20,691 nt of DNA from positions 1 through 20,691 of the forward strand of contig JBQTGV010000081.1 of NCBI GenBank assembly GCA_052390515.1, given 5' to 3'. The DNA comes from Candidatus Eiseniibacteriota bacterium. GTDB lineage: Bacteria > ARS69. Position numbers and translations under genes: made by a program. The notes beneath the pieces were generated by a model. That model searched no databases, was not told the origin of the DNA, and saw only the letters and a program-made list of their open reading frames with translations. This document shows positions 3,542 to 19,557 of the stretch, in pieces (position 1 is the stretch's first letter; each line of letters begins with the position of its first letter).

Positions 3542-5611
3542 TCAGCGGCGGACGACCACCTGTTGCGAGAGGCGTCCGTCCGGTGCGGCGAGGCGCACCC
3601 AATAGACCCCGGACGCGACCGGCGCGCCCGCCCCGTCCCTGCCGTCCCACCAGAGGGCGCGGGACCCCGCGGTCTGCGTCCCGCTCCACAGGGAGCGGAT
3701 CTCCCGCCCCGCGACGTCGTGGACCGAGACGCGCACCTCGCCGGGGCGCGAGAGGAAGTAGCGGATCTGCGTGAGATCCCGGACCGGATTGGGCGCCGGC
3801 GGATGCAGGGCGAAGGCCTGCGCGGCAGCCGCCTCCGGGCCCCAGTCGGCGGAGGTCGGCGCCAGGAATTGCTCGTCGAGGATCCAGTCGTCCGGGTCCA
3901 CCTCGAGCCCGGTCGGCTGCGCGCTCACGACGAAGGAGAACTCGTGCTCGGCGGAGTCCACGCGCTCGGAGAAGTCGAAGTCTCCGGAACCGGTCTGCAC
4001 GCGGAGGTCCACGGGCATGTCGAAGAGGCTCGCCGTGGTCTGCACCTGGCGGATGATCACGTCGACCTGCCACTGCCCGCCGCCCAGGTCCTCGGCCGAC
4101 CACCCGTACTCGTAGTGCGGGTGTCCCTCGCCGTACAGCCAGGGGTCGAAGAACCAGCTCATGTCCTCGCCGACCGTGGAGCTGACCGAAGTCACGAAGT
4201 CGGCGCTCTCCGCGTTGCCGTACTCGTGCGCCTGCAGGAAGTCACGGAGCGCCTGCCAGAACAGCGGGTCGTCGTCCAGCACGCCGCGCAGCATGTGCAG
4301 GACGCAGCCGCCCTTCTCGTAGTTGATGACCCCCCACTTCTCCGTCGGATCCACGACGCCGTCGACGATCCCGGAGTTGATCACCGGGTTCATCAGGCGA
4401 CTCGTCACGTGCGAGTGGTAGGCGCCCATCCCGCTCTGGTGCTCGAAGAACACCGCCTCGCTGTACGTGGCAAATCCCTCGGAGAGCCAGATGTGATGCC
4501 AGTCGGCGTACGTCACGCAGTCCCCGAACCACTGGTGGCCCATCTCGTGCGCCAGGATGTCGTCGTGCGAGTTCGTGCTGTCCACCAGGCTGATGGCGTG
4601 GCTCACGCAGGTCTGGTGCTCCATGTCCCCGATCGTCGTGGTCATGAAGGCGAACTTGTCGAACGGGTAGGGTCCGTAGCGGGACTCGAACGCCTGCATC
4701 ATCAAGTCCACGTACTGGAAGCTGACCTCGGAGGCGGCCTTGAATCCCGGGCTGTGGTACACGGTGATCCGCGGATCCGTGACGATCGTGTTCGACAGCG
4801 TCCGGTATGGCGCGACCGCGACGGCGATGAGGTACGTGCTGATGGGGAAGTCGTGCGACCAGTGCCAGGTGTGCCTCGTGGCGGTCGAGTCCACGCCGGT
4901 CAGCAGCCCGTTGGCGACCGCTACCTGCGAGAGCGGCGTCTCGATGTTCAGGTCCACCGTCGCCTTGTCGCAGGGCCAGTCGTAGCAAGGGAACCAGGAG
5001 AAGCCCATCGAAGGAGGATCCGCGGTGAGGCCCACCCCCATGGAGAACGCCACCTTGGGAATGAGCGACCACCAGAACCCGCCGAAACCGCCGCCGCCTT
5101 CGTTCGCCGGAAGTCCGGAGTAGGCGACGTCCACCACGACCGTGTCGCCGGTGTTCGCCGGTGCGGCCAGGGTCACGCCGAGGACGTCGCCCGCGTGCGT
5201 GAACCCCGTCGTTCCGTTCGGCGTCACCGTCACGGACGACACGGCCAGCTGCGTCGTCAGGTTCAGGTCGATCTGACCGAGGCCGTCGATCGTGGACGCG
5301 AGCGTGATCACGGTGTTGCCGTCGAGGATGGAGACGGCCGGGTCGAGGTTGTCGAAGTTCAGCTCGTAGTGCAGCACATCGAAGTCGTGCGGGCATCCGT
5401 CGACGGTTCGAGCGGCTGCGTGAGCCGGCTCGGTCCGGGAGCGCCAGCTCATCAGGGGATCCCGCGGGTCGGCGAGCGCATCGCCGGCCACCAGGCGGTG
5501 CCGCGCGGTGTGGCCGCCCCAGGTCCCCCCGGGAGCCGCCGCTCCCTCACCGGGGAACGAGGCCAGCAGCGCGGGGGCCGCCAGCAGGGCGAAGCACGAG
5601 GCGAGGCGCAT
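3542..5611 (-). CDS. Secreted M1 family zinc aminopeptidase with C-terminal FlgD-Ig (T9SS-CTD-like) domain
   Basis: HEMGH-x18-E zinc motif (AHEMGHQWFGD...WLSEGFATY), GXMEN-like GDMEH, YEKGGCVLHMLR. C-terminus PAPNPVRD...WDGRDGAGAPVASGVYWVRL. ATG 5611 gives signal peptide MRLASCFALLAAPALLA; the longer ORF-track start overlaps the ZIP gene. Confidence 0.93.
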   Translation of the reverse strand: MRLASCFALLAAPALLASFPGEGAAAPGGTWGGHTARHRLVAGDALADPRDPLMSWRSRTEPAHAAARTVDGCPHDFDVLHYELNFDNLDPAVSILDGNTVITLASTIDGLGQIDLNLTTQLAVSSVTVTPNGTTGFTHAGDVLGVTLAAPANTGDTVVVDVAYSGLPANEGGGGFGGFWWSLIPKVAFSMGVGLTADPPSMGFSWFPCYDWPCDKATVDLNIETPLSQVAVANGLLTGVDSTATRHTWHWSHDFPISTYLIAVAVAPYRTLSNTIVTDPRITVYHSPGFKAASEVSFQYVDLMMQAFESRYGPYPFDKFAFMTTTIGDMEHQTCVSHAISLVDSTNSHDDILAHEMGHQWFGDCVTYADWHHIWLSEGFATYSEAVFFEHQSGMGAYHSHVTSRLMNPVINSGIVDGVVDPTEKWGVINYEKGGCVLHMLRGVLDDDPLFWQALRDFLQAHEYGNAESADFVTSVSSTVGEDMSWFFDPWLYGEGHPHYEYGWSAEDLGGGQWQVDVIIRQVQTTASLFDMPVDLRVQTGSGDFDFSERVDSAEHEFSFVVSAQPTGLEVDPDDWILDEQFLAPTSADWGPEAAAAQAFALHPPAPNPVRDLTQIRYFLSRPGEVRVSVHDVAGREIRSLWSGTQTAGSRALWWDGRDGAGAPVASGVYWVRLAAPDGRLSQQVVVRR

Positions 5612-5626
5612 GGACGCAGGATACCA
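5612..5626 (-). promoter_or_regulatory. Extended -10 promoter (TGgTATCCT), leaderless configuration
   Basis: TATCCT (5623-5618) is preceded by TG-n and followed by 6 nt and then ATG 5611; no SD. Confidence 0.55.
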
Positions 5627-5694
5627 CGCCCGGGCTGTCGGGGAGGTCGGCCGAACCTCCGACTCCCAGGTGCCGGGCGGTGGGCGTGGGGCGC

Positions 5695-6411
5695 TCAGTG
5701 CCCCAGGGTCATGATGGCGATGCCGGCGAACAGCGCCGCCAGGTTCCGGTAGCGCCCCTCCGGGGCGGAGTGGATCTGCGGCAGGAGATCCGCCGTGGCG
5801 ATGGCCAGGAAAGTGCCCGCGGAGAAGGCGATGGCGTAGTGCACCCCGGTTCCGGTCAGCCCGGAGAGTGCGCTGTACGAGAGGAGCGCACCGACCGGCG
5901 GCGCCAGCGAGAACAGGACGCTCATGAGGGCGATGCGTCGCTTGGGGTACTGGCAGTGCAGCAGGATCCCGGTCAGGGACAGGGACGAGGGCAGCTTGTG
6001 CAGCACGATGGCCAGCGTCACCGCCGTGGCCACTTCCGGCATGGTGAGCCCGGCGCCGAGCGCCAGCCCGTCGATCAGCGCGTGCAGGGTGATCCCCGCG
6101 AAGGCCGCCATGCCCATGTGGTGGAAGTTGCAGTGCTCCTCCTCGCAGGGGTGCAGCATGATGAACCGTTCCAGCACGTAGATGAGCAGGAAGCCGATGA
6201 GCACGGGCGTGCCCACCGACGCGCCGATGCCCTCGATGGCCTCCGGGATCATGTGGAAGAACGAAGCGCCCAGCAGCACGCCGGTCCCGAACGCCAGCAG
6301 CACGCGGATGGAGCGGCGGTCCCACTCCCTCGCCAGGGGTAGCAGTCCGCCGCCGAGAGACAGCAGCATGACCGACCCCAGCGCAACGACCAGTCGAAGA
6401 GGCTCGCTCAT
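5695..6411 (-). CDS. ZIP (ZupT-like) family metal transporter
   Basis: About 8 TM helices; AFGTGVLLGASFFHMIPEA, His/Cys loop HPCEEEHCNFHH, TM4 HALIDGLALG, TM5 HKLP, FSAGTFLAIATADLLP. ATGA overlap with the hflK stop. Confidence 0.93.
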   Translation of the reverse strand: MSEPLRLVVALGSVMLLSLGGGLLPLAREWDRRSIRVLLAFGTGVLLGASFFHMIPEAIEGIGASVGTPVLIGFLLIYVLERFIMLHPCEEEHCNFHHMGMAAFAGITLHALIDGLALGAGLTMPEVATAVTLAIVLHKLPSSLSLTGILLHCQYPKRRIALMSVLFSLAPPVGALLSYSALSGLTGTGVHYAIAFSAGTFLAIATADLLPQIHSAPEGRYRNLAALFAGIAIMTLGH

Positions 6412-7331
6412 TCCGGTGCCTGGCTCCCGAGGTCGAGGATCTTGAGATCGAACCGCGGCGCCTTGCCGCCGTCGATGACGTATCGCTTGGTCCGCGGCAG
6501 CACCGTCTCCAGCGTCTCCAGGTACAGGCGCCGCCTGGTCGCGCTCGGAGCCTTGCGGTACTCCGCCAGCACCGAGAGGAACCGCGCGGCTTCACCGGTC
6601 GCGGCGGCGATGCGCGTGTCCCGATCGCCCTGTCCGCGCTCGGCGATCCACCTCGCCTCGCCGCGGGCCCGCGGGATCACCGAGTTGGCGTACCCGTTGG
6701 CTTCGTTGATGACCCGCTCGCGGTCGGCCACGGCGTTGGACACGTCGCGGAACACGTCGATCACCTGGCTCGGCGGATCCACCGAGAGCAGACTGACCGA
6801 GGCGACGGCGATCCCCAGCCCGAGCTCGTCGGCCCGCTCCTGCGTGCGCCGGCGCACTTCCTGGGAGAGGAGCGCGCGGCCGCTGGTGAAAGCGTCGTCC
6901 ACGCTCATCGCCCCGAGCACGTCGGTCAGCGCCGCCTCGGCGATCGTCGCCATGAGGAATTGCGCGCCCTCCATGCGGTACAGGTACCTGGCGAGGTCGA
7001 CCACGGTGTACTGGATCATCACCTTCACCGAAACGATGTTCGTGTCGCCGGTGAGCCAGAGCGAGAGCTCCTCCGGGGAGGGGATCCCGCGGAGGTAGTC
7101 CCGCGTCACCATGCCGACTCCCATCTTGTACACGGTCGTGGTCTGGAACTTCGCGTGGCTCTCGAAGGGGTATGGCATCCGCCAGTGCAGCCCCGACGGG
7201 ACGGCATGCTCGGTCACGCGGCCGAAGCGCTTCACGACGGCCAGCTCCTCGGGCTCCACCTTGTAGAAGCCGGAGAGAAGCCACAAGGCGACGACCGCCA
7301 GCGGAGCGAAACGGAGCCAGCGCTGGATCAC
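6408..7331 (-). CDS. hflK: HflK-like SPFH/band-7 membrane protein
   Basis: Single N-terminal TM; VVKRFG...SGLHWRMPYPFE, LTGDTNIV, VDPPSQVIDVFRDV, EANGYANSVIPRARGEA, YRKAPSATRRRLYLETLE are HflK hallmarks. GTGA overlap with the hflC stop. Confidence 0.92.
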   Translation of the reverse strand: MIQRWLRFAPLAVVALWLLSGFYKVEPEELAVVKRFGRVTEHAVPSGLHWRMPYPFESHAKFQTTTVYKMGVGMVTRDYLRGIPSPEELSLWLTGDTNIVSVKVMIQYTVVDLARYLYRMEGAQFLMATIAEAALTDVLGAMSVDDAFTSGRALLSQEVRRRTQERADELGLGIAVASVSLLSVDPPSQVIDVFRDVSNAVADRERVINEANGYANSVIPRARGEARWIAERGQGDRDTRIAAATGEAARFLSVLAEYRKAPSATRRRLYLETLETVLPRTKRYVIDGGKAPRFDLKILDLGSQAPE

Positions 7332-8221
7332 TTGTCCCCCCGCGAACCACCCGCACCGTCCATCAGCGGGCGCATGAGCTCCGAGTCCGAGGGCAGGACG
7401 AACGTCGTCTGATCGTCGAGGAACTTGCGGTACGCCTCGAGCGTGCGGGTGAACTCGTAGAACTCCGGGTCCTTGGCGATGGCCGCACCGAAGATGCGCG
7501 TCGCCTCGGCCTCACCCTCGCCGCGCAGGATCTCCGCCTGCTGGTACGCCTCGGCGAGGATCTGACTCTCCTCGCGGTCGGCCTGTGCGCGGATCTTGCG
7601 CGCCTCCTCCTCGCCCTCGGAGCGGTACCCCCGCGCGATGCGCTCACGTTCCGCGCGCATGCGTTCGAACACGCTGCGGCGGTTCTGGTCCGGGAAGGAG
7701 AGCCGCCGCACGTCGAAGTCGAGGACCTCGATGCCGAAGCGCGAGCGGGCCACTTCCCGCAGCTGCTGCTCGATGGCCTGCACCATGGTCGAGAGCGTCC
7801 GCTTCTCCGCCTCCGTGTTGATGAGCTGGTCGAAGGGAACGACCGCCAGGGAAGCGCCCAGCTCGGAGGCGAGCACGTCGGTGAGCTGGCTCCGGGCGGC
7901 GGCCTCCGACGGGACGGCTCGGAAGTACTGCAGCGGATCGGCCACGCGCCACACGGCGAAGTAGCTCACCACGACGTTCTTCTTGTCGTTGGTGAGGAAC
8001 TCGCCTTGCTGGGGCTCGAGCACCTGCAGGCGGGCGTCGAAGCGCCGCACCTGGTGGACGATCGGGATCCGGAAACGGAGCCCCGGTTCGGTGACGACCT
8101 GCACGGGATTGCCGAAGCGGGTCACCACCGCGGTTTCGGTCACGTCCACGGTGAAGAACGACCCCCAAAGCAGCGCCGCCGCGACGGCGAGCGCCGCGAG
8201 GACCATCCTTGCGTTCGTCAC
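7328..8221 (-). CDS. hflC: HflC-like SPFH/band-7 membrane protein
   Basis: N-terminal TM; AVVTRFGNPV, FDARLQ, FLTNDKKNVVV, VFERMRAERERIARGYRSEGEEEA, KDPEFYEFTRTLEAY are HflC hallmarks. Confidence 0.95.
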   Translation of the reverse strand: MTNARMVLAALAVAAALLWGSFFTVDVTETAVVTRFGNPVQVVTEPGLRFRIPIVHQVRRFDARLQVLEPQQGEFLTNDKKNVVVSYFAVWRVADPLQYFRAVPSEAAARSQLTDVLASELGASLAVVPFDQLINTEAEKRTLSTMVQAIEQQLREVARSRFGIEVLDFDVRRLSFPDQNRRSVFERMRAERERIARGYRSEGEEEARKIRAQADREESQILAEAYQQAEILRGEGEAEATRIFGAAIAKDPEFYEFTRTLEAYRKFLDDQTTFVLPSDSELMRPLMDGAGGSRGDK

Positions 8222-8225
8222 TGCG

Positions 8226-10394
8226 TCACTCTCCTTCCCCCTCGTCGGGCGCGGCTTCCCGCACCTCGCTGCCGCGGATCACGTCGCCGATCGCTTCGGG
8301 GTCCCCCGCGCCGGTGGAGATCCACAGGTCGACGCCGGCGGAGCCGCCCCAACCCGGTCGCACGATCTTGCGGCTCCCGGCGAGCACCTCCTCGACGGTC
8401 TCGAGGTACAGCCGCGTCCTGGCTCCGGTCCTGCGCGCGCGGTACGCATCGGATCGGAGGGCCAGGCTCGTGGACTCGCCCTGCGCGCGGAACACCTCTG
8501 CGGTGGCGAAGCTCTTCGCCGCCTCCACCTGCGCGACGGCGTCTCCCCTCGCCAGATTCACGGTCTCCACCAGGTACCTCCTGGCCACGTCGATGGCCGT
8601 GCGCTTGTCCTCTTGCGAGCTGGCCACGTCGCGGAACGCGGCGTGCACTTCCGGCGGCGCGTGCAGGTCGAGCACCCCGAAGCGCAGCACTTCCACGCCG
8701 AGCGGGAGCGCGTCGACCCTTCGCCGAAGGCCCTCTCCCACGCGCTGCTCGACCGTCCGCCGCAGATCGCCGTAGACGTGATCGATGCTGAGCGCCGCCA
8801 CCACGTCCACGATCTCGGCGATCGTCTCCGAACGCAGCACCGCCTCGGGATCCACGAACCCCCAGCGCCAGCGGGCCGCGTCGAGGATCCGATACTGCAC
8901 CACGGACTTCGCGTCGACGAGGTTCTCGTCTCCCGTGAGGAAGAGTGACTCCTCTTCCAGCAGCCGCGGAGCGTCGGGCGTCACCGGAGCAGCCAGCGTG
9001 TCCGGGCCGGCGCCCGAGGAGCGGAAGCCCAGCTCGAGCCGCCGGACGCCGTCCACGTGCACGAGCTCGGCGACCTCCAGCGGCACCGGCAGCTTGAGGT
9101 GCAGCCCCTCCCCCCGCGGCTCTCCTCGCGGCGCCCCGAAGCGCTGCACGAGCCCGCGGTGACCCGGAGGCACGATCAGCAGGCAGGTCGACGCCGCCCA
9201 CAGAACGAGGGCGACGACGGCCGCGCCGGCCAGGGTGGCGCGGCTCGGGCGAAAGCCGGTCAGCGAAGAGAGCGCGCGACCGACGGCGCGGAACTCGACC
9301 GGAGCCGGCGCTCTCAAAAACGAGAAGACCAGGAGCAGGGCGAAGGCGACCGACGCCGGCACCGAGATCCACAGCGGCAGGTGCGACACGCCGCCGGCCA
9401 CCGCGCGCGGATCGATGGCGAACGTGCGGTACGCGACGTCGAGCAGCACGCCGAGCACGACGCTGGTCACGCCGATCGTCACGAGGTAGATGATGGTCAC
9501 CCGGCGGCCCAGGAAACGTGAGAGGATGGCCAGCGATCCGATGTTCGTGGCCGGGCCGGCGAGCAGGAACACCAGCGCCGCGCCCGGGGACAGCCCCTTC
9601 ACGATGAGCGCCGCGGCGATGGGAGTCGAAGCGGACGCGCAAATGTACAAGGGGATCCCGATGGCCAGCATCACCACGTAGGGCAGCGGTCCAGCCCCGA
9701 GGTAGCGCGTCACGATGTCCGCGGGCAGCAGGAGCGTGATCAGCGCGGAGATGACCAGGCCGGCGAACATCCAGTGCGACGTCTCGTCGAACATCTCGAC
9801 GAACGCCTCCCGGAATCCGGCGCGGAGCTTCGCGGCCATGGACGATTCCCCGCCCGCCTTCCGCTCGGCGGCGGCGAGCGCGTCGTGGGTGTGGCCGTGG
9901 GTGTCGGGGGGACAGTCGTCGCAGGCGGGCGGCTCGGCGGCGGTCGGCTGTGCGGCCTCCGGCTTCACCTTCTCCTCCGGGCCGCCGAACAATTCCGTCG
10001 CGAAGCCCGCGGCGATGCCGGAGACCAGCGCGGCGATGGGGCGATAGATCGCCATCAACGGCCCCATGAGGCCCCAGGTCAGGGCGATGGCCTCCTCGCC
10101 CGTCTCCGGGGTGGAAACCAGGAAGGAGACCGTGGCCCCGCGGCTCGCCCCCCGCCGCCGCAGAGCCATGGCGGTCGGCAGGACCGAGCAGGAGCACAGT
10201 GGGAGCGGCAGGCCCAGCAGGGAGCCGGTGAAGATGGAGCGGAAGCGGCCGCGACCGAGCAGCCGCTGGATGAACGCGACGGGCACGAGCGTCTGGATCG
10301 CTGCGGCGACGACGAAGCCGAGCAGGATATAGGGGGAGGCCTCGAGAAAGACGAGGACGAGCTCGCGCAGGAATCGCCCGAGGAAGTCGATCAC
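8226..10394 (-). CDS. SO_0444/ArsP (PF03773-type) metal permease fused to a C-terminal HflK-type SPFH domain
   Basis: N-terminal about 360 aa: LPLCSCSVLP, FLVSTPETG, GIPLYICASASTPIAAAL, GAALVFLLAGPATN, central CDDC..HGHTH loop. After an extra TM, from about 9190: VQRFG..GLHLKLP, FLTGDENLV, HAPPEVHAAFRDVASS, RTRLYLETVEEVL. One continuous frame of 722 aa. Confidence 0.9.
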   Translation of the reverse strand: MIDFLGRFLRELVLVFLEASPYILLGFVVAAAIQTLVPVAFIQRLLGRGRFRSIFTGSLLGLPLPLCSCSVLPTAMALRRRGASRGATVSFLVSTPETGEEAIALTWGLMGPLMAIYRPIAALVSGIAAGFATELFGGPEEKVKPEAAQPTAAEPPACDDCPPDTHGHTHDALAAAERKAGGESSMAAKLRAGFREAFVEMFDETSHWMFAGLVISALITLLLPADIVTRYLGAGPLPYVVMLAIGIPLYICASASTPIAAALIVKGLSPGAALVFLLAGPATNIGSLAILSRFLGRRVTIIYLVTIGVTSVVLGVLLDVAYRTFAIDPRAVAGGVSHLPLWISVPASVAFALLLVFSFLRAPAPVEFRAVGRALSSLTGFRPSRATLAGAAVVALVLWAASTCLLIVPPGHRGLVQRFGAPRGEPRGEGLHLKLPVPLEVAELVHVDGVRRLELGFRSSGAGPDTLAAPVTPDAPRLLEEESLFLTGDENLVDAKSVVQYRILDAARWRWGFVDPEAVLRSETIAEIVDVVAALSIDHVYGDLRRTVEQRVGEGLRRRVDALPLGVEVLRFGVLDLHAPPEVHAAFRDVASSQEDKRTAIDVARRYLVETVNLARGDAVAQVEAAKSFATAEVFRAQGESTSLALRSDAYRARRTGARTRLYLETVEEVLAGSRKIVRPGWGGSAGVDLWISTGAGDPEAIGDVIRGSEVREAAPDEGEGE

Positions 10395-10429
10395 GCGCCT
10401 ACGTTAGGGCGATTCGGCAAAGCGAGCAA
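10395..10429 (-). promoter_or_regulatory. Sigma70-type promoter of the permease-hflK/hflC/hflK/ZIP operon, leaderless configuration
   Basis: -35 TTGCTC (10429-10424), 17 nt spacer, -10 TAACGT (10406-10401), 6 nt, then GTG 10394. Confidence 0.55.
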
Positions 10430-10463
10430 GGGAACGGGTCTGGCCGCAGCCGCGCCCTGCGCC

Positions 10464-10469
10464 TAGAAT
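10464..10469 (+). promoter_or_regulatory. Putative -10 element (TAGAAT) for the divergent TM-TPR gene
   Basis: Near-consensus hexamer in a GC-rich gap, 28 nt before GTG 10498, which has a GGAGG SD. The -35 is weak. Confidence 0.45.
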
Positions 10470-10497
10470 CCGGGTCGTTTCGCCGCCCGGAGGACTC

Positions 10498-12201
10498 GTG
10501 TCCGCCCACCCTTCCGCCCCCACCCCCCGTGAATCCGCCGCGCTCTTCGCCGCCGCCCTGCTGCTGCGCGCGGCCGCGTTCCGGCCGGGCCTCCCGCCGG
10601 CGCCTCCGGAGGCCGTCCTTCTCGGCCCGGAGCCGGGGCCCGTTCTGCTCGCGGCACGCGTGGGATCCCTGGTGCTCGGCGCGCTGGCGGTCGTGCTCAC
10701 CGCCTCCACCGCCGCCGCCCTCGGCGGGCGTCTCGCCGGCCTGGCGGCCGGGGCGCTCCTCGCCGCCGCACCCTTCGCGCTGAGCCACTCCGGCTGGGTC
10801 GGAGCTCCGGGAGCGCTGCTCCTCGCGGCCGCCGGATGCCTCCTGCACCTCGTCCGTTACCGGCTCGATCGACGCGCGCGGGACCTCGCGGCCGCGGCCG
10901 CCTGGTCGCTCGTCGGCATCGCCGGCCTTGCCTCGGCGCCGCTCACCAACGTGGCGCGCGAGGGCGTCGTGTCCCCGATCGTCGAAGCGATCGTCGAGTC
11001 CGGCCGCGCCGGCGGCTGGGCGGCGCTCGTGCTCGCCGCGGCCGGCGTCTGGCTCGCGGTGCGCGAGGCCGCTTCCCCTGCGCGAATGGTCGCGGTCGCC
11101 ACCGTGGCGATGCTCGTGATCGCGTTGCTCCGCGAGGGGCCGGATCCGCTCTCCATCGGCATCGCCCTTCCCGGGCTCACCGTGCTGGCCGGCATCGCAC
11201 TCGCCCGTGTTCCGATGGCGAAGAGGTCGCTCGTGTTCGCCGTCGCTGGGATCGTGACGCTGGTCGGCTCGGCGCTGGCCATCACCGCGAGCCGCGCGCC
11301 GGGACCGGCCGAGGCGGCTGCGGAGTGGGTACGGCGCAACGTCCCCAACGGCGCCGCCATCCTCGTCGGAGAGCCGGACCTCGAGCTTCCCGCGTTCGAC
11401 CTGGCTTCCGGCGCGAAGGGCTTCCAGCGGCTTCCGCTTCCGCCGCCGGGGACGAGCGGCGAGGAGGCGGACGCGTTCCTCGATCCGGAGATCGCCCGCC
11501 GGTTCGGCTGGCTCGTGCTCCGAGACCCGCCGGCTTCCGCGCGCGCGCCGCAGCGTGCGTTCCACGAGTTCTTCGACGCGGAGTGGGAGACCGCGGCGCG
11601 TTTCGGCGAGCGCGCGCACCCGGCGTCGCCGGTCACCGTGCTGCGCCGGCCGGAACCGTGGAAACCCGACTCGGCACGCGCCGCCGCATTCGCCTCGCGC
11701 TCCGCGCGGCTCTCGGCGCTGCGGGACACGAGCAGCGCGTTCGCCTCGTGGGCGCTGGCCGCGGGTGAAGCCTTCCGCGCCGCCGGGGACATCGAGTCGG
11801 CGGCCGACATGCTGGAGCTCGCCCGCGGTCAGGAGAGCGGCAACGCCGAGGTGTGGTTCGAGATCGGGCTCACCCGCCTGCTGGAGCAGCGCTTCGAGGA
11901 GGCGATGTCCGCGTTGCACCGGGCGATCCGCATCGATCCCGGTCACGGCCCCGCGCACTACAACCTCGGCTCGTTGCTGGAACGCGAGGGCGACCTGAGT
12001 GGGGCCGAGACCGAGTACCGCGCGGCGATTCCGCGACTCGCCGATCCGACGCCCGCTCACACGCGCCTCGGCGTGGTCCTCACCCTGAGGGGCAGTCTCG
12101 AGGAGGCGCGCGTCGAGCTGGAGGCGGTGCGGCGCCTCGCTCCCGGAAGCGATGCGGAGGCCGTGCTCCTGGAGGCGATCACGCTGGCCGAGCGGCGGTA
12201 G
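10498..12201 (+). CDS. Multi-pass membrane protein with C-terminal TPR repeats (possibly degenerate GT-C/ArnT-like)
   Basis: GGAGG before GTG; several hydrophobic Ala/Leu helices in the first 270 aa; AAAEWVRRNVPNGAAILV is typical of the soluble domain after GT-C membrane domains; TPRs AEVWFEIG, AIRIDPGHGPAHYNLG, AHTRLGVVL. Confidence 0.7.
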   Translation: MSAHPSAPTPRESAALFAAALLLRAAAFRPGLPPAPPEAVLLGPEPGPVLLAARVGSLVLGALAVVLTASTAAALGGRLAGLAAGALLAAAPFALSHSGWVGAPGALLLAAAGCLLHLVRYRLDRRARDLAAAAAWSLVGIAGLASAPLTNVAREGVVSPIVEAIVESGRAGGWAALVLAAAGVWLAVREAASPARMVAVATVAMLVIALLREGPDPLSIGIALPGLTVLAGIALARVPMAKRSLVFAVAGIVTLVGSALAITASRAPGPAEAAAEWVRRNVPNGAAILVGEPDLELPAFDLASGAKGFQRLPLPPPGTSGEEADAFLDPEIARRFGWLVLRDPPASARAPQRAFHEFFDAEWETAARFGERAHPASPVTVLRRPEPWKPDSARAAAFASRSARLSALRDTSSAFASWALAAGEAFRAAGDIESAADMLELARGQESGNAEVWFEIGLTRLLEQRFEEAMSALHRAIRIDPGHGPAHYNLGSLLEREGDLSGAETEYRAAIPRLADPTPAHTRLGVVLTLRGSLEEARVELEAVRRLAPGSDAEAVLLEAITLAERR

Positions 12202-12345: not shown

Positions 12346-12960
12346 ATGGCGCACGCACTCCCACCGCTTCCTTACGACTACAAGGCGCTCGAGCCGCACA
12401 TCGACGAGCAGACCATGCGGCTGCACCACGACATGCACCACAAGGCCTACGTCGACGGCCTGAACGCCGCCGAGGAGAAGCTCGCCGGCATGCGGCAGAG
12501 CGGGGACTTCGCCCAGGTGCAGGCCGTCGAGCGCGCGCTCGCGTTCCACGGCTCCGGACACATCAATCACTGCGTGTTCTGGGAGAACATGTCGCCGAAG
12601 GGCGGCGGGGCGCCGGGCGGGGACCTGGCGGCGCGCATCAACAAGGACTTCGGCGGCATCGACCCGTTCAAGAAGCACTTCTCCGCGGCGGCCGCGTCCG
12701 TGGAGGGCAACGGCTGGGGGATTCTCGCGTGGCACCCGATGGCCGGACACCTCTTCGTGCTCGCCTCGATGAACCACCAGAACCAGGGAATCCACGGCGC
12801 GATCCCGCTGCTCCTGCTCGACGTGTGGGAGCACGCCTACTACCTCAAGTACCAGAACAAGCGTGCCGCGTACATCGAGGCGTGGTGGAACGTCGTGAAC
12901 TGGGCGAACGTGGCGGAGCGCTACGACCGTGCGCGTTCGCTCGAGGCCAAGACGGTCTGA
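12346..12960 (+). CDS. sod: Fe/Mn superoxide dismutase
   Basis: LPPLPYDYKALEPHI, HHDMHHKAYV, GHINH..FW, DVWEHAYYLKYQN signature. Confidence 0.98.
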   Translation: MAHALPPLPYDYKALEPHIDEQTMRLHHDMHHKAYVDGLNAAEEKLAGMRQSGDFAQVQAVERALAFHGSGHINHCVFWENMSPKGGGAPGGDLAARINKDFGGIDPFKKHFSAAAASVEGNGWGILAWHPMAGHLFVLASMNHQNQGIHGAIPLLLLDVWEHAYYLKYQNKRAAYIEAWWNVVNWANVAERYDRARSLEAKTV

Positions 12961-13032: not shown

Positions 13033-13620
13033 GTGCGTGCGGATTCGTCTGTGAAGCCTGTCGATCGAGTGACCGCGGGGACGTTCCTGGTCGCAGGACC
13101 GATGCTGCGCGATCCCAACTTCGTCCGCACGGTCGTCCTGATGTGTGAGCACGGCGAGGAAGGCTCGTGGGGATTGGTGCTCAACCGGCGCACGCCGCTG
13201 ACCTTCGGCGAGCTGCTGGACGACCTGCCCTTCCCCGCGTCGGGAGGCGGGCCCGTGTACTGGGGCGGACCCTGCGAGACGTCGCGGATGCAGGTGCTGC
13301 ACCGGCTGCGCCGGGAGCTCCCGCGTCCGATCGAGGTGATCACCGGCGTGCGGCTCGGACTGGACCCGGAGACGTTCCGGCGCGTCGTGGCGGAGACCCG
13401 CCTGCCCGGTGAGGCCCTGCATGCGTACGTGGGGTACGCCGGCTGGGGACAGGGGCAGCTGGCCGCGGAGATCGAGTCCGGCTCCTGGATCCTGTGCACG
13501 GGGGACTCGCGCATCGTGTTCGAGACCGAGCCGGATCGGGCGTGGGACCGCGTGCTCGAGTCGCTCGGGCCGGGGTACGCACGCCTCACCCGCGTGCCCA
13601 TCGATCCGCGTCTGAACTGA
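13033..13620 (+). CDS. yqgE: YqgE/AlgH family protein (DUF179)
   Basis: FLVAGPMLRDPNFVRTVVLMCEHGEEGSWGLVLNR, VYWGGP, GYAGWGQGQLAAEI..GSW. The start may be GTG 13051. Confidence 0.93.
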   Translation: MRADSSVKPVDRVTAGTFLVAGPMLRDPNFVRTVVLMCEHGEEGSWGLVLNRRTPLTFGELLDDLPFPASGGGPVYWGGPCETSRMQVLHRLRRELPRPIEVITGVRLGLDPETFRRVVAETRLPGEALHAYVGYAGWGQGQLAAEIESGSWILCTGDSRIVFETEPDRAWDRVLESLGPGYARLTRVPIDPRLN

Positions 13621-16976: not shown

Positions 16977-18035
16977 ATGGCTACTCCCGAGAGAGTCCTC
17001 GAAACCCTCCAGGATCTGCGTCTGGACCCAGCGCCGAAGAGCATCGTCGCGCTGGGGATGATCGTCGAACCGACGGTCCGCGAGGGGCGCGTGCGCCTCA
17101 CGCTGGAAATGCCGTCACCGGCGCATCCGCGGACGGACGCGCTGGCCGCCGCGGTGCGGCAACGGGTCGCCGCGCTCGACGGCGTCGCCTCCGTCGACGT
17201 GGAGACGACCTGGCGCGTGCGCGAGGGCGACTTCAAGAAGCCGGCCATCCCCGGCGTCAAGAACGTGATCGCGGTGGCCAGCGGCAAGGGCGGCGTCGGC
17301 AAGAGCACCGTCGCCGCGAACCTGGCCGCGGGGCTGCACGCGCTCGGCGCTTCGGCCGGGCTCCTGGACCTCGACATCTACGGCCCGAGCGTCCCGGTTG
17401 TCCTCGGGGACGACAGCGAACCGCGCGTCGCCGGCGGCGAACGCCTGCTCGCCTCGGAAGCGCACGGCCTTCGCTTCCTGTCCATGGGCCAGCTGGCCCG
17501 CGGGGACAGCCCGGTCGTGTGGCGCGGGCCGATGCTGCACAAGATGGTGATGCAGTTCGCAGACGCCGACTGGGGCACGCTCGACTACCTGATCCTCGAT
17601 CTCCCGCCCGGCACGGGAGACGTGCAGCTCACCGTGACGCAGCAACTGCCCGTTTCCGGTGCGCTGATCGTGACGACGCCGCAGGAGATCGCTTTGATCG
17701 ACGCGCGCAAGGGGCTGCGCATGTTCCGCGAGGTGCACGTGGCGGTCCTCGGCCTCGTCGAGAACATGTCGAGCTACCGCTGCCGCAAGTGCGGGAAGGA
17801 GCATGCGCTGTTCGGCACCGGCGGCGGCGCGAAGCTCGCCGCGGAGGAGGGCGTGCCGCTGCTTGCGCGGCTGCCGCTCGATCCGGAGATCAGCGCGAGC
17901 ACGGGCGCCGGCGTACCCATCGCGTTCGGGAAGGGCGTTCTCGCCGACGCGTGGCGCCGTCTCGCCGCGGAGACCGCCGCCGCCGCGGCCACGCTCTCCC
18001 TCGCCAAGAGCCCGTTCAAGGTGCTCGCGTCGTGA
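16977..18035 (+). CDS. mrp: Mrp/NBP35/ApbC Fe-S cluster carrier ATPase with N-terminal DUF59 (FeS_assembly_P) domain
   Basis: [48 protein letters not shown]-terminal [13 protein letters not shown]...[11 protein letters not shown]. Confidence 0.95.
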
Positions 18036-19216
18036 CGACCGCCTGGGTGCCGCTCACCGGGGTCCGCGAGATCGTCGCGGTACACAGCGCGAAGGGTGGC
18101 GTCGGCAAGTCGACCGTGGCGGTGAACCTGGCGGTGGCGTGCGCGCGGATGGATATGCGGGTGGCGCTGCTGGACGCCGACATTCACGGCCCATCCGTCG
18201 CGCACATGATGGGCTCGTCCGAGCGGCCGCGCACCGCACCGTCCGGCGACCGCGTCTTCCCCATCGAGCGGCACGGCGTGAAGTACCTCTCCCTCGCCAA
18301 CGTCGCCGAGCCCGACGCGCCGGTGATCTGGCGCGGGCCGATGGTGGCGGGTGCGCTTCGCCAGCTCCTCGAGATCGTCGACTGGGGCGAAACCGATATG
18401 CTGCTGGTCGACATGCCGCCCGGTACCGGAGACGCGGTGCTCGGCATCGGCCAGGCGGTGACGCTCAGCGGCGTGGTCGTGGTGACGACTCCCGAGGCGC
18501 TCTCCGTCTCCGACACGCGTCGCGGCGTGCACGCCTTCGAGCGGCTCGAGGTCCCCGTGCTCGGTCTCGTCGAGAACATGGCCTCGTTCGTCTGCGATGC
18601 GTGCGGGGACGAGGTGGCGCTCTTCGGCGAAGGCGGCGGACGGCGCGCCGCGGAGGCGCTGGGCATTCCGTTCCTCGGGCGCGTGCCGATCGATCCCCTG
18701 GTCGTGCCGGCGGGAGACTCGGGCGTGCCGATCTTGGCGAAGGACGCTGGGCAGCCGGCCGCGCGCGCCTTCGACGCGGTGGCCAAGGCGATGCTGGCGC
18801 GGATGGCGCTGAGCGGACAGAGCTCGTCCTTCGACATCGAGTGGAAGCGCATGAAGGCGAAGGAGCGGCGGCGCGATCCGCCGGGCAAGGTCAAGCCGTC
18901 CGGCGAGCCGGGGCGGCCCGACGCACTGTGGCAGGCGGCGGACGACGTGCTCGGCATCCGCTGGGGCGACGGCCGGACCACGTTCCACGGAGCGTACGCG
19001 CTGCGCGTCGCCTGCCCGTGCGCCGGATGTGTCGAGGAGTGGTCCGGGAAGCGGCAGCCTTCCCTGGATACCGTGCCGCGGGGCGTTCGCCCCGTCACCA
19101 TCCGCTCGGTGGGCCGCTACGCCATCCTGCCGGTCTGGAGCGACGGCCACCGGACCGGGATGTTCTCGTTCCGCGCGCTGCGGGAGGGCGCCGGAGCGGT
19201 CGACGCGCCGGCGTGA
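18032..19216 (+). CDS. mrp: Second Mrp/NBP35 ATPase with C-terminal DUF971 (GBBH-like N) domain
   Basis: GTG 18032 overlaps the upstream stop (GTGA); [41 protein letters not shown]-terminal LGIRWGDG...[10 protein letters not shown]...[21 protein letters not shown]. Confidence 0.92.
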
Positions 19217-19253
19217 GTCGGCGGACGGCACCGGAGCGGTCCGGCCGCCCGCG

Positions 19254-19262
19254 TGATAGGAT
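19254..19262 (+). promoter_or_regulatory. Extended -10 promoter (TGaTAGGAT) upstream of yggX
   Basis: TG-n-TAGGAT in the 68 nt gap; GGAGG SD before ATG 19285. Confidence 0.45.
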
Positions 19263-19284
19263 CCCGCGCGTCCCGGAGGGTGGA

Positions 19285-19557
19285 ATGGCTCGCATGGTGA
19301 AGTGCGTGATCCTGGGCAAGGAAGCGGAGGGACTGGACTACCCCCCCGTCCCGGGCGAGCTCGGGCGAAAGATCTACGAGGGCGTGTCCAAGGAGGCGTG
19401 GGCGCAGTGGACCGGACTGCAGACCATGCTCATCAACGAGTACCGGCTGAACCTGGCCGACGAGCGCGCGCAGAAGCTCCTCATGGAAAAGCTCGAGGAG
19501 TTCCTCTACGGGCAGGGAATCGAGCCGCCGCCGGACTACGTGCCGCCCTCGACCTGA
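19285..19557 (+). CDS. yggX: Fe(II)-trafficking / oxidative damage protection protein YggX
   Basis: Tail of ORF 17803..19557: [53 protein letters not shown]...EEFL; conserved Cys7 present; SD GGAGG. Confidence 0.95.

Follow-up and report, generated by a model that had tools for sequence, protein, structure and literature searches.

The stretch of DNA analysed here, hereafter the window, comprises 20,691 nucleotides of contig JBQTGV010000081.1 from an assembly of Candidatus Eiseniibacteriota bacterium (GCA_052390515.1), read on the forward strand, with a G+C content of about 70%. Four minus-strand open reading frames (ORFs), here called genes A to D, occupy its positions 5695-10394 end to end. 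The first three are one copy of an old, widely scattered module in which a gene for a transporter-HflK fusion is followed by an HflC-like gene and a free HflK-like gene.

8226-10394, minus strand: gene A, 722 amino acids, an SO_0444-family permease fused to an HflK-like SPFH protein
7328-8221, minus strand: gene B, 297 amino acids, HflC-like, with a single N-terminal membrane helix
6408-7331, minus strand: gene C, 307 amino acids, free HflK-like, with a single N-terminal membrane helix
5695-6411, minus strand: gene D, 238 amino acids, a short ZIP-family transporter, the lineage-specific fourth gene

Genes A and B are separated by a gap of 4 nt (TGA-CGCA-GTG), B and C share a GTGA overlap, C and D share an ATGA overlap, and gene D is followed by an 83-nt spacer and then by a gene for an M1-family peptidase. 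An initial annotation of the window had described four tightly coupled genes with this gap and these overlaps, and the ORF coordinates and junction sequences bear it out. Its naming of the four as a permease-HflK fusion, hflC, hflK and a ZIP transporter is upheld by Pfam and NCBIfam scores. The gene A product matches ArsP_1 (PF03773) at residues 15-318 with 174 bits, exceeds the cut-off of 300 of the SO_0444 model NF033936 (370.6 bits, residues 14-356) and carries Band_7 (PF01145) at residues 407-605; its SPFH half scores 139.9 bits with the hflK model TIGR01933, under the cut-off of 159.4, which the gene C product exceeds with 210.1 bits. The gene B product reaches 208 bits with the hflC model TIGR01932 (cut-off 134.4), and the gene D product 119.4 bits with Zip PF02535 (cut-off 35.1) and 65.8 bits with the ZupT equivalog model NF003243, whose cut-off is 252; by these scores, gene D is a ZIP-family member and not a ZupT equivalog. 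The His/Cys motifs quoted for the two transporters are present, ACDDCPPDTHGHTHD in the central loop of gene A and HPCEEEHCNFHH in gene D, whose loop reads HPCEEE-x-C-x-FH; the ZIP motif core is invariant in 8/8 close relatives. The genome holds one further ZIP gene elsewhere, and the fused gene is the sole PF03773 member found in it. The reported lack of ftsH also stands, with no FtsH among the window ORFs scanned; hflX was not searched for.

The gene A product is divided into three parts.

9312-10394, minus strand: permease domain, amino acids 1-361, built from a pair of repeats that both contain a broken helix or hairpin
9183-9311, minus strand: in the AlphaFold2 model, an Arg-rich linker, an amphipathic helix (amino acids 366-379) and a single membrane anchor helix (amino acids 385-402)
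8229-9182, minus strand: HflK-like part, amino acids 405-722, modelled by AlphaFold2 as SPFH 405-578, helix 581-653, helix 656-670 and C-terminal strands 676-692

The AlphaFold2 model of this protein, built on a 60-sequence alignment, is continuous (predicted local distance difference test score, pLDDT, 79.1), with block pLDDT values of 78-90 over the junction residues 361-450, and Ser358, Arg361 and Pro365 around the linker are invariant among gene A homologues. In the model, the SPFH half has the attributes of an SPFH cage subunit, namely an SPFH domain, a long coiled-coil helix (581-653, 73 residues) and a C-terminal cap segment. A profile search aligned gene A with E. coli HflK (7vhp_E, E 7.4e-55, profile 482-685 to chain residues 143-346), and the top Foldseek matches of the SPFH half are likewise HflK chains, 7vhq_E (7.7e-14) and 9cz2; HflC, stomatin, prohibitin, erlin, QmcA, flotillin and vault are also among the matches. 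Over 60 homologues, the loop 37-50 carries on average 3.3 Lys+Arg and 0 Asp+Glu, the linker 362-384 carries 3.4 Lys+Arg, and the central loop carries 3.6 Lys+Arg against 9.7 Asp+Glu. On the basis of these charge counts together with the fold matches, we favour a modelled topology in which the N-terminus lies outside, the central acidic loop and the linker are cytoplasmic and the SPFH part is periplasmic. The genes B and C products have short Arg-bearing N-termini ahead of their single helices, which, together with the Arg-rich linker of gene A, would put all three SPFH parts on the periplasmic side, like those of E. coli HflK/C.

The permease was also modelled alone (pLDDT 86.2, predicted template-modelling score 0.82). 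Its best fold match is ArsB (10tp_A, Z 12.5, 284 aligned residues, root-mean-square deviation 5.2), the next 12 (Z 8.0-10.0) are all elevator-type transporters (Pho90, YdaH, INDY, TRAP-QM, VcINDY, NaS1, DiT1 and CNT), and unrelated chains in the comparison remain at Z 5.7 or below. The ArsP family (PF03773) has been assigned to the TOG superfamily with 4+4 helices (PMC7176098, Table 2). Due to the fold matches and the Arg-rich loops that flank segment 51-80 on both sides, we set this parallel-repeat topology aside for inverted repeats with hairpins, an arrangement that agrees with the helix breaks seen near invariant Cys67-Ser68-Cys69 and near Cys252 and would make Cys-Ser-Cys a hairpin tip. 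The model thus suggests that the permease has an ArsB/INDY-like elevator fold, of the ion-transporter class that takes in ArsB, DASS/INDY, AbgT, TRAP-QM and CNT, and the fold class of the ArsP family may need revisiting. Cys67-Ser68-Cys69 is invariant across 60 fused homologues and across 28 fused and unfused homologues, and Cys252 is invariant in the homologue alignments of the permease domain; the Cys-Ser-Cys motif is described as a hallmark of the SO_0444 family, sometimes as Sec-Ser-Cys (10.1101/2022.07.06.499078, from the accessible part of the text). Two loci, L074 and L052, were left out of alignment A5 since their references contained a stop, and a selenocysteine at the L074 stop (TGA read as U) was rejected, the codon not being TGA and sitting upstream of the start. 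In S. oneidensis, SO_0444 is required for growth under ZnSO4 or CuCl2 stress, a defect relieved in the complemented mutant, and its gene sits with a ZntR-like regulator, as far as the accessible part of that report goes (PMC3219624). Within the family, Cu/Zn tolerance is known only for this S. oneidensis protein, by fitness and complementation. The substrates of the window permease are most likely soft metals, for example Zn or Cu. The central loop (amino acids 137-185) is acidic and contains His and Cys.

The three-gene order recurs well beyond the window lineage. Among the clusters of gene A homologues listed (at least 120), PF03773 and PF01145 occur together in 120/120. A genome scan returned 80 loci, 23 with the fused form and 57 with an unfused permease only. 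In all 22 fused loci with room for it, an HflC-like gene follows the fusion on the same strand, and fusion, HflC-like gene and HflK-like gene keep their order and strand in 20/20 loci with room for three (L026, L056 and L061 end at contig edges), which is more than chance would produce. These loci span about seven phyla and, going by their record titles, include Gemmatimonadota-labelled and unclassified metagenome-assembled genomes (MAGs), Rokuibacteriota, Planctomycetota, Latescibacterota, Eisenbacteria, Myxococcota and an Acetobacteraceae MAG; within the window's own phylum (12 genomes, one family), the fusion is found in 12/12, one of them at a contig edge. We scanned 133 flanking ORFs from the 23 fused loci (134 candidates, of which one was the fusion itself and was dropped). 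The window lineage shares a neighbourhood of saccharopine dehydrogenase, Fe/Mn superoxide dismutase, TPR membrane protein, module, ZIP and M1 peptidase, and outside this lineage the flanks differ; thus, it is the trio that is conserved and not its surroundings.

The ZIP gene belongs to those surroundings. It follows the trio in 7 of the 20 loci, all in the window's family-level lineage, where it is kept in 7/7 close relatives with room, so that the description of three SPFH domains bracketed by two metal transporters holds for a single syntenic lineage. The conserved unit is the set of three SPFH-bearing genes, and the ZIP gene is a lineage-specific fourth gene. In two other loci, the fourth gene, which overlaps the last gene of the trio by 4 nt, is of a different kind: L097 has a xanthine/uracil-type permease (6796-8148) and L122 a sulfatase (8937-10379). 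At the other end of the module, an extra HflC-like gene together with an acetamidase/formamidase-family gene lies just upstream in L023 (4892-6917), L024 (470-2527) and L056 (473-2568), from Rokuibacteriota and Acetobacteraceae; in L026, an extra HflC-like gene was seen by tblastn only. These extra copies form their own clade within the module group of HflC-like proteins.

The same design occurs with other transporters. A search with gene C for longer relatives returned HflK-like domains behind a CDF domain (Cation_efflux), behind EamA domains in two proteins and behind other multi-helix N-termini. The trio of EamA-HflK, HflC-like and HflK-like genes is complete in L120 and L122, the remaining EamA loci meeting contig edges after the HflC-like gene (L119) or earlier (L118 and L121). 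Dedication of the design to metal transport, as initially proposed, is therefore not exclusive, given this EamA-transporter version beside sulfatase genes. The best plasmid match to gene B lies on the conjugative plasmid NZ_CP018172.1 of Aquibium oceanicum, where a 515-residue protein annotated 'HflK' consists of Cation_efflux (8-198) and Band_7 (243-414). The gene order there is CDF-HflK, HflC-like (42.5% identical to gene B), HflK-like, a PpiC-type isomerase, a P1B-ATPase (HMA), PCu(A)C and SCO, and a two-component system and an insertion element lie upstream of the module. A CDF membrane domain ends in the cytoplasm, which would likewise put the SPFH part behind it in the periplasm. Among the CDF-HflK clusters listed (at least 120), the architecture is present in 120/120, and those that are named are labelled only 'FtsH protease activity modulator HflK'. 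The occurrence of the CDF version is sporadic, however: across 72,556 plasmid records, one full-length CDF-HflK fusion was found, and no SO_0444-HflK fusion. A metagenome scan with the CDF-HflK protein P0123 gave no relative, and among 301 sampled genomes of the class of G017 there was no match over the CDF half of P0148, the 143 matching genomes matching only about residues 208-513; this sample includes the unpublished genome G261, which enters that count only. Six HflK-like proteins (P0126-P0131, about 560-610 residues) have five or six N-terminal hydrophobic helices without a Pfam match, which may be a further cargo type; one of them is named 'protease modulator HflK' in an Opitutaceae MAG.

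Elsewhere, too, HflK/C-type trios stand beside metal transporters, in agreement with the initial annotation: besides the Aquibium CDF-HflK module upstream of a P1B-ATPase, this is the case at the PA2439 locus of P. aeruginosa with hmtA. The following is taken from the accessible parts of the reports on this species. In a znuA mutant, expression of the HflK/C-family genes PA2439, PA2438 and PA2437 and of hmtA, which encodes a P-type ATPase, rises 5.6- to 14.4-fold (PMC4542158, Table 2), the PA2438 and PA2439 proteins are raised under zinc depletion (PMC11761036), and Zur binds the PA2439 promoter in a gel-shift assay (10.1101/2021.05.28.446167). In strain PA14, three SPFH genes in one operon, PaFlo5-7, show a patchy distribution that suggests horizontal transfer, and the phenotypes of PaFlo5-6-7 mutants are only subtle, biofilm being reduced by about 20% and virulence towards wax-moth larvae attenuated (PMC13086221); a term search of the accessible part of this study found no metal assay. 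We infer that PaFlo5-7 are probably PA2437-2439. The Aquibium HflC-like protein also served as the query for a sample of 401 Pseudomonadota genomes. It matched 54 of them at E 1e-55 or better, and the best 25 loci are all plain hflK-hflC pairs (0/25 trios); this search did not reach the P. aeruginosa trio.

The module proteins were compared with canonical HflK and HflC in a mixture-model quick tree of 95 SPFH sequences, including the HflK/HflC of E. coli and Tistrella and five housekeeping pairs. The HflC-like proteins of the modules form one 28-row group with a support of 99 in the Shimodaira-Hasegawa-like approximate likelihood ratio test (SH-aLRT), and 92 and 94 in the other two trees. This group leaves out the seven canonical HflC, that of E. 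coli among them, and comprises 21 proteins from SO_0444 modules, three from EamA modules, one from a CDF module and three extra Rokuibacteriota copies. On the HflK side, the mixture-model tree gives a 53-row group (support 94) without the seven canonical HflK, composed of two sister groups, one of 24 free HflK-like proteins (support 92) and one of 29 fused HflK parts (support 84). The 21 gene C-type proteins from SO_0444 modules are one clade in all three trees (support 98, 96 and 94), an earlier 77-row tree agrees, and the sub-clades are congruent among A, B and C. None of the three groups with canonical HflK or HflC in the tree, the HflK side being less sure, and gene B is 42-43% identical to the HflC-like proteins of CDF and EamA modules versus 35% to the HflC of its own genome. 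The phylogeny of the three SPFH domains asked for at the outset thus sets the module HflC-like proteins apart from canonical HflC (99 SH-aLRT), whereas relations on the HflK side depend on the method. On these alignments, the separateness of the HflC-like group is well supported, and it is likely, though not secure, that the fused and free HflK lines go back to one origin and that the transporter was swapped later.

The window genome also has the separate housekeeping pair whose presence the initial annotation had left to be checked: contig C45 carries adjacent hflK (277 bits) and hflC (266 bits) genes followed by mnmA. Both outscore the module genes; the window genes are paralogues. Altogether, 11 module-bearing genomes were checked, and in seven of them (G000, G001, G002, G004, G005, G017 and G020) an hflK distinct from the module genes exceeds the cut-off and lies next to hflC. 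The single ftsH of the window genome lies on contig C119.

We consider it probable, with moderate confidence, that the module encodes a dedicated HflK/C-type ring with a tethered transporter. At the periplasmic side of the inner membrane, the three SPFH proteins would form an alternating ring or cage of the HflK/C type, in which HflC-like subunits would alternate with HflK positions shared by the free and the fused HflK-like proteins, and each ring would have a fixed number of transporters covalently attached along its rim. That fused and free HflK-type genes are both kept in 20/20 complete loci leads us to speculate that they share the HflK positions and so dilute the bulky cargo. By confining the permease to a delimited patch of membrane, the ring would control the activity, oligomeric state or turnover of the permease; it could act on its cargo by fixing the elevator scaffold, defining the lipid patch, walling off the periplasmic exit or gating FtsH access, the last being a possible route to the control of turnover. 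The ZIP of gene D is an add-on of one lineage, which fits the metal theme and need not belong to the complex, and the EamA version shows that the tethering principle extends beyond metals.

Several observations weigh against this proposal or parts of it. The argument for co-assembly of A, B and C draws only on homology and gene order. FastTree splits the fused HflK group and puts housekeeping HflK beside the free HflK-like clade, and gene C is 39% identical to the HflK of its own genome versus 34-37% to its module counterparts. No separate canonical hflK over the cut-off was found in 4 of the 11 module-bearing genomes (G003, G018, G019 and G021), all of them draft MAGs, where a miss is weak evidence. 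As to the fold, the ArsB match (Z 12.5) lies just below the caution line for helical bundles, and the elevator-type matches disagree with the published 4+4 TOG assignment. The link to metals is also qualified at several points. The His/Cys loop of gene A is variable rather than conserved, with means of 2.3 His and 0.8 Cys over 60 fused homologues and none in some clades. The linked ZIP gene counts as a single evolutionary event, confined to one syntenic lineage, and it is functionally odd for a presumed efflux-type permease to share an operon with an uptake-type ZIP. Of the 13 trio loci outside the window lineage, 10 lack any other metal-transporter gene within about 4 kb; the three exceptions are L031, with a divergent ZIP, and L037 and L082, with ABC-3 permeases. 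Sulfatase genes and no metal genes adjoin the EamA modules. No metal-responsive regulator or operator was found, a Zur-like operator not having been sought systematically.

A different explanation is that the module is mainly a regulator of FtsH, a variant HflK/C cage in which the fused transporter serves as sensor or bait and ties FtsH proteolysis, or its own degradation, to metal status. In the four genomes without a separate hflK, the module may be the organism's own HflK/C, which keeps a role with FtsH in play; the scores of B and C exceed the curated thresholds for hflC and hflK, the alignment between the SPFH half of gene A and E. coli HflK covers most of the periplasmic part, the one FtsH of the window genome could be shared, and FtsH is a zinc protease (PMC13086221, accessible part). 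However, the window genome and six others keep a separate, better-scoring canonical pair, and the module HflC-like group stands apart from canonical HflC. No ftsH was found beside the module in the window or in the scanned flanks, where one AAA protein lies 2.8 kb away in L025, and a sensor role would leave the fusion of three unrelated transporter families unexplained. We therefore regard this explanation as unlikely, with a minor share of the probability.

The proposal of a tethered ring can also be carried further. The trio would then be an ancient, cargo-swappable SPFH nanocompartment, an FtsH-independent ring with a fixed elevator scaffold and a walled-off periplasmic exit; it would descend from one ancestral module in which the N-terminal transporter (SO_0444, CDF, EamA or another multi-helix domain) was exchanged, and its metal versions, including the Zur-controlled trio of P. 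aeruginosa, would be a private hand-over space for Zn or Cu. We offer this extension as a tentative idea that is more likely wrong than right.

The initial annotation had itself envisaged a periplasmic metal-handling compartment. In such a model, a closed periplasmic cage around permease and ZIP would buffer metal or channel it between exporter and importer. The ATGA overlap of genes C and D, the retention of the ZIP in 7/7 close relatives with room and the invariant Cys/His/Glu loop of the ZIP speak for it, as do human stomatin cages that reportedly enclose aquaporin-1 and urea transporter-B (PMC12407830, accessible part; PDB 9zd2). These are outweighed by the 13 of 20 loci in which no ZIP follows the trio, by the confinement of the ZIP-bearing loci to one syntenic lineage and by the variation of the fourth gene (the L097 permease, the L122 sulfatase or none), and we hold such a compartment to be improbable. 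It is very improbable, in our judgement, that there is no specific coupling at all and that the module is a general membrane-stress or microdomain scaffold with accidental fusion and operon partners. The subtle effects in PaFlo5-6-7 mutants (PMC13086221, accessible part) and the heterogeneous cargo families would suit such a scaffold, but the layout of transporter, linker, anchor helix and SPFH domain persists in hundreds of sequence clusters, in every locus seen the fusions are accompanied by the same pair of partners, and linker and anchor are conserved, with Ser358, Arg361 and Pro365 invariant. Finally, the idea that gene A is an artefact, with two genes merged through an error of sequencing, assembly or gene calling in a fragmented assembly (223 contigs), was rejected and has a negligible chance of being right, since the same open frame recurs in 23 independent genome loci and in 120/120 clusters listed, from several sources, and the model is continuous and confident over the junction.

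Around the module, the following putative regulatory feature was identified.

10401-10429, minus strand: putative promoter-like element, TTGCTC (10429-10424), 17-nt spacer, TAACGT (10406-10401)

The four genes had initially been placed under one promoter. An element of the form TTGC(T/C)(C/T)-17 nt-TAACGT is indeed kept in 7/7 aligned upstream regions of gene A (the window, L018-L022 and L029), whereas a scan of 5400-10700 for consensus sigma-70 promoters returned 0 sites; a single promoter is putative. Only 6 nt lie between the element and the GTG start of gene A, which would leave a transcript from it almost without a leader. Two terminator-like sites inside the ZIP gene in the same interval are at chance level, and a hairpin in the 83-nt spacer after the ZIP gene was rejected as a terminator, since it folds no better than shuffled sequence (z -0.58). 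A GGATTCTA box (TAGAAT on the plus strand) at window positions 10461-10470, in the divergent intergenic region, also occurs in L018, L020, L022 and L029. This conserved box probably serves as the -10 element for the TPR membrane-protein gene at 10498-12201, which is transcribed divergently.

Among the neighbouring genes, the M1-family peptidase with a C-terminal FlgD_ig domain (3542-5611, minus strand), directly after the ZIP gene, is syntenic in L019, L020, L021, L028 and L029. On the plus strand, Fe/Mn superoxide dismutase (12346-12960) and an AlgH-like DUF179 protein (13033-13620) are encoded between the TPR gene and the saccharopine dehydrogenase genes. Further along the same strand (16977-19557), two consecutive genes encode Mrp/NUBPL-type P-loop NTPases, one with FeS_assembly_P and the other with DUF971/GBBH-like_N; after the NTPases, a YggX-like Iron_traffic Fe(2+)-trafficking domain occupies residues 495-582 of ORF 17803-19557 (ORF starts provisional). 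Mrp/ApbC genes also adjoin hflK-hflC on Tistrella and Azospirillum plasmids and lie about 2.5 kb upstream of the module in L082.

Beyond HflK/C-FtsH, the roles and clients of bacterial SPFH rings are largely open, and here the client is known since it is welded to the ring. Any effect of the ring could therefore be measured by comparing fused, truncated and partner-less transporters, with metal tolerance or metal content as the readout. The design is common, with at least 120 clusters each for the SO_0444 and CDF versions, and since it is labelled only 'HflK' or 'SO_0444 family transporter', one half of the protein goes unseen in many annotations. The design further provides a testable explanation for the three zinc-regulated HflK/C-family genes ahead of hmtA in P. 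aeruginosa. No description of a transporter-HflK fusion or of the three-gene design was found in the literature searched, most subscription journals and supplements lying outside the search. SPFH rings with clients are already known (HflK/C-FtsH, stomatin-aquaporin-1); what is new is that the client is fixed by the gene itself.

The module shares features with several known systems and differs from each. With the SO_0444/ArsP family (PF03773, TCDB 2.A.119), gene A shares a score over the NF033936 cut-off and the Cys-Ser-Cys motif, but characterised members stand alone, and no ZntR-like regulator was seen at the window module. At the P. aeruginosa locus PA2439-PA2434, likened here by the descriptions in the accessible parts of the reports only, HflK-family, HflC and HflK/C-family genes also lead the locus with a metal transporter downstream; there, however, the transporter (HmtA) is a separate gene of another family. 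SPFH-NfeD operons (QmcA-YbbJ, 8z5g; stomatin-STOPP) likewise combine an SPFH protein with a dedicated membrane partner in a small operon, and QmcA is among both the sequence and the fold matches of gene A, but their partner is a small scaffold or protease and is unfused, and the module has no NfeD gene. The E. coli HflK/HflC cage around FtsH (7vhp, 7wi3, 9cz2) has the same single N-terminal helix, periplasmic SPFH domain, long helix and C-terminal cap. It has two proteins where the module has three, of which one HflK-type subunit bears a 9-helix transporter in place of the short cytoplasmic tail; moreover, the module proteins fall outside the canonical groups and coexist with a canonical pair in this genome, and no hflX or hfq linkage was seen at the module (hflX not searched for). 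The human stomatin cages enclosing aquaporin-1 and urea transporter-B, represented among the fold matches of the gene A SPFH half by PDB 9zd2, are, along with channel regulation by stomatin, an example of an SPFH ring that surrounds and modulates a transport protein (PMC12407830, PMC13724742, from the accessible parts of both). Their client is held non-covalently inside a homo-oligomeric cytoplasmic cage, whereas the client of the module is fused to one subunit of what would be a hetero-oligomer, probably periplasmic.

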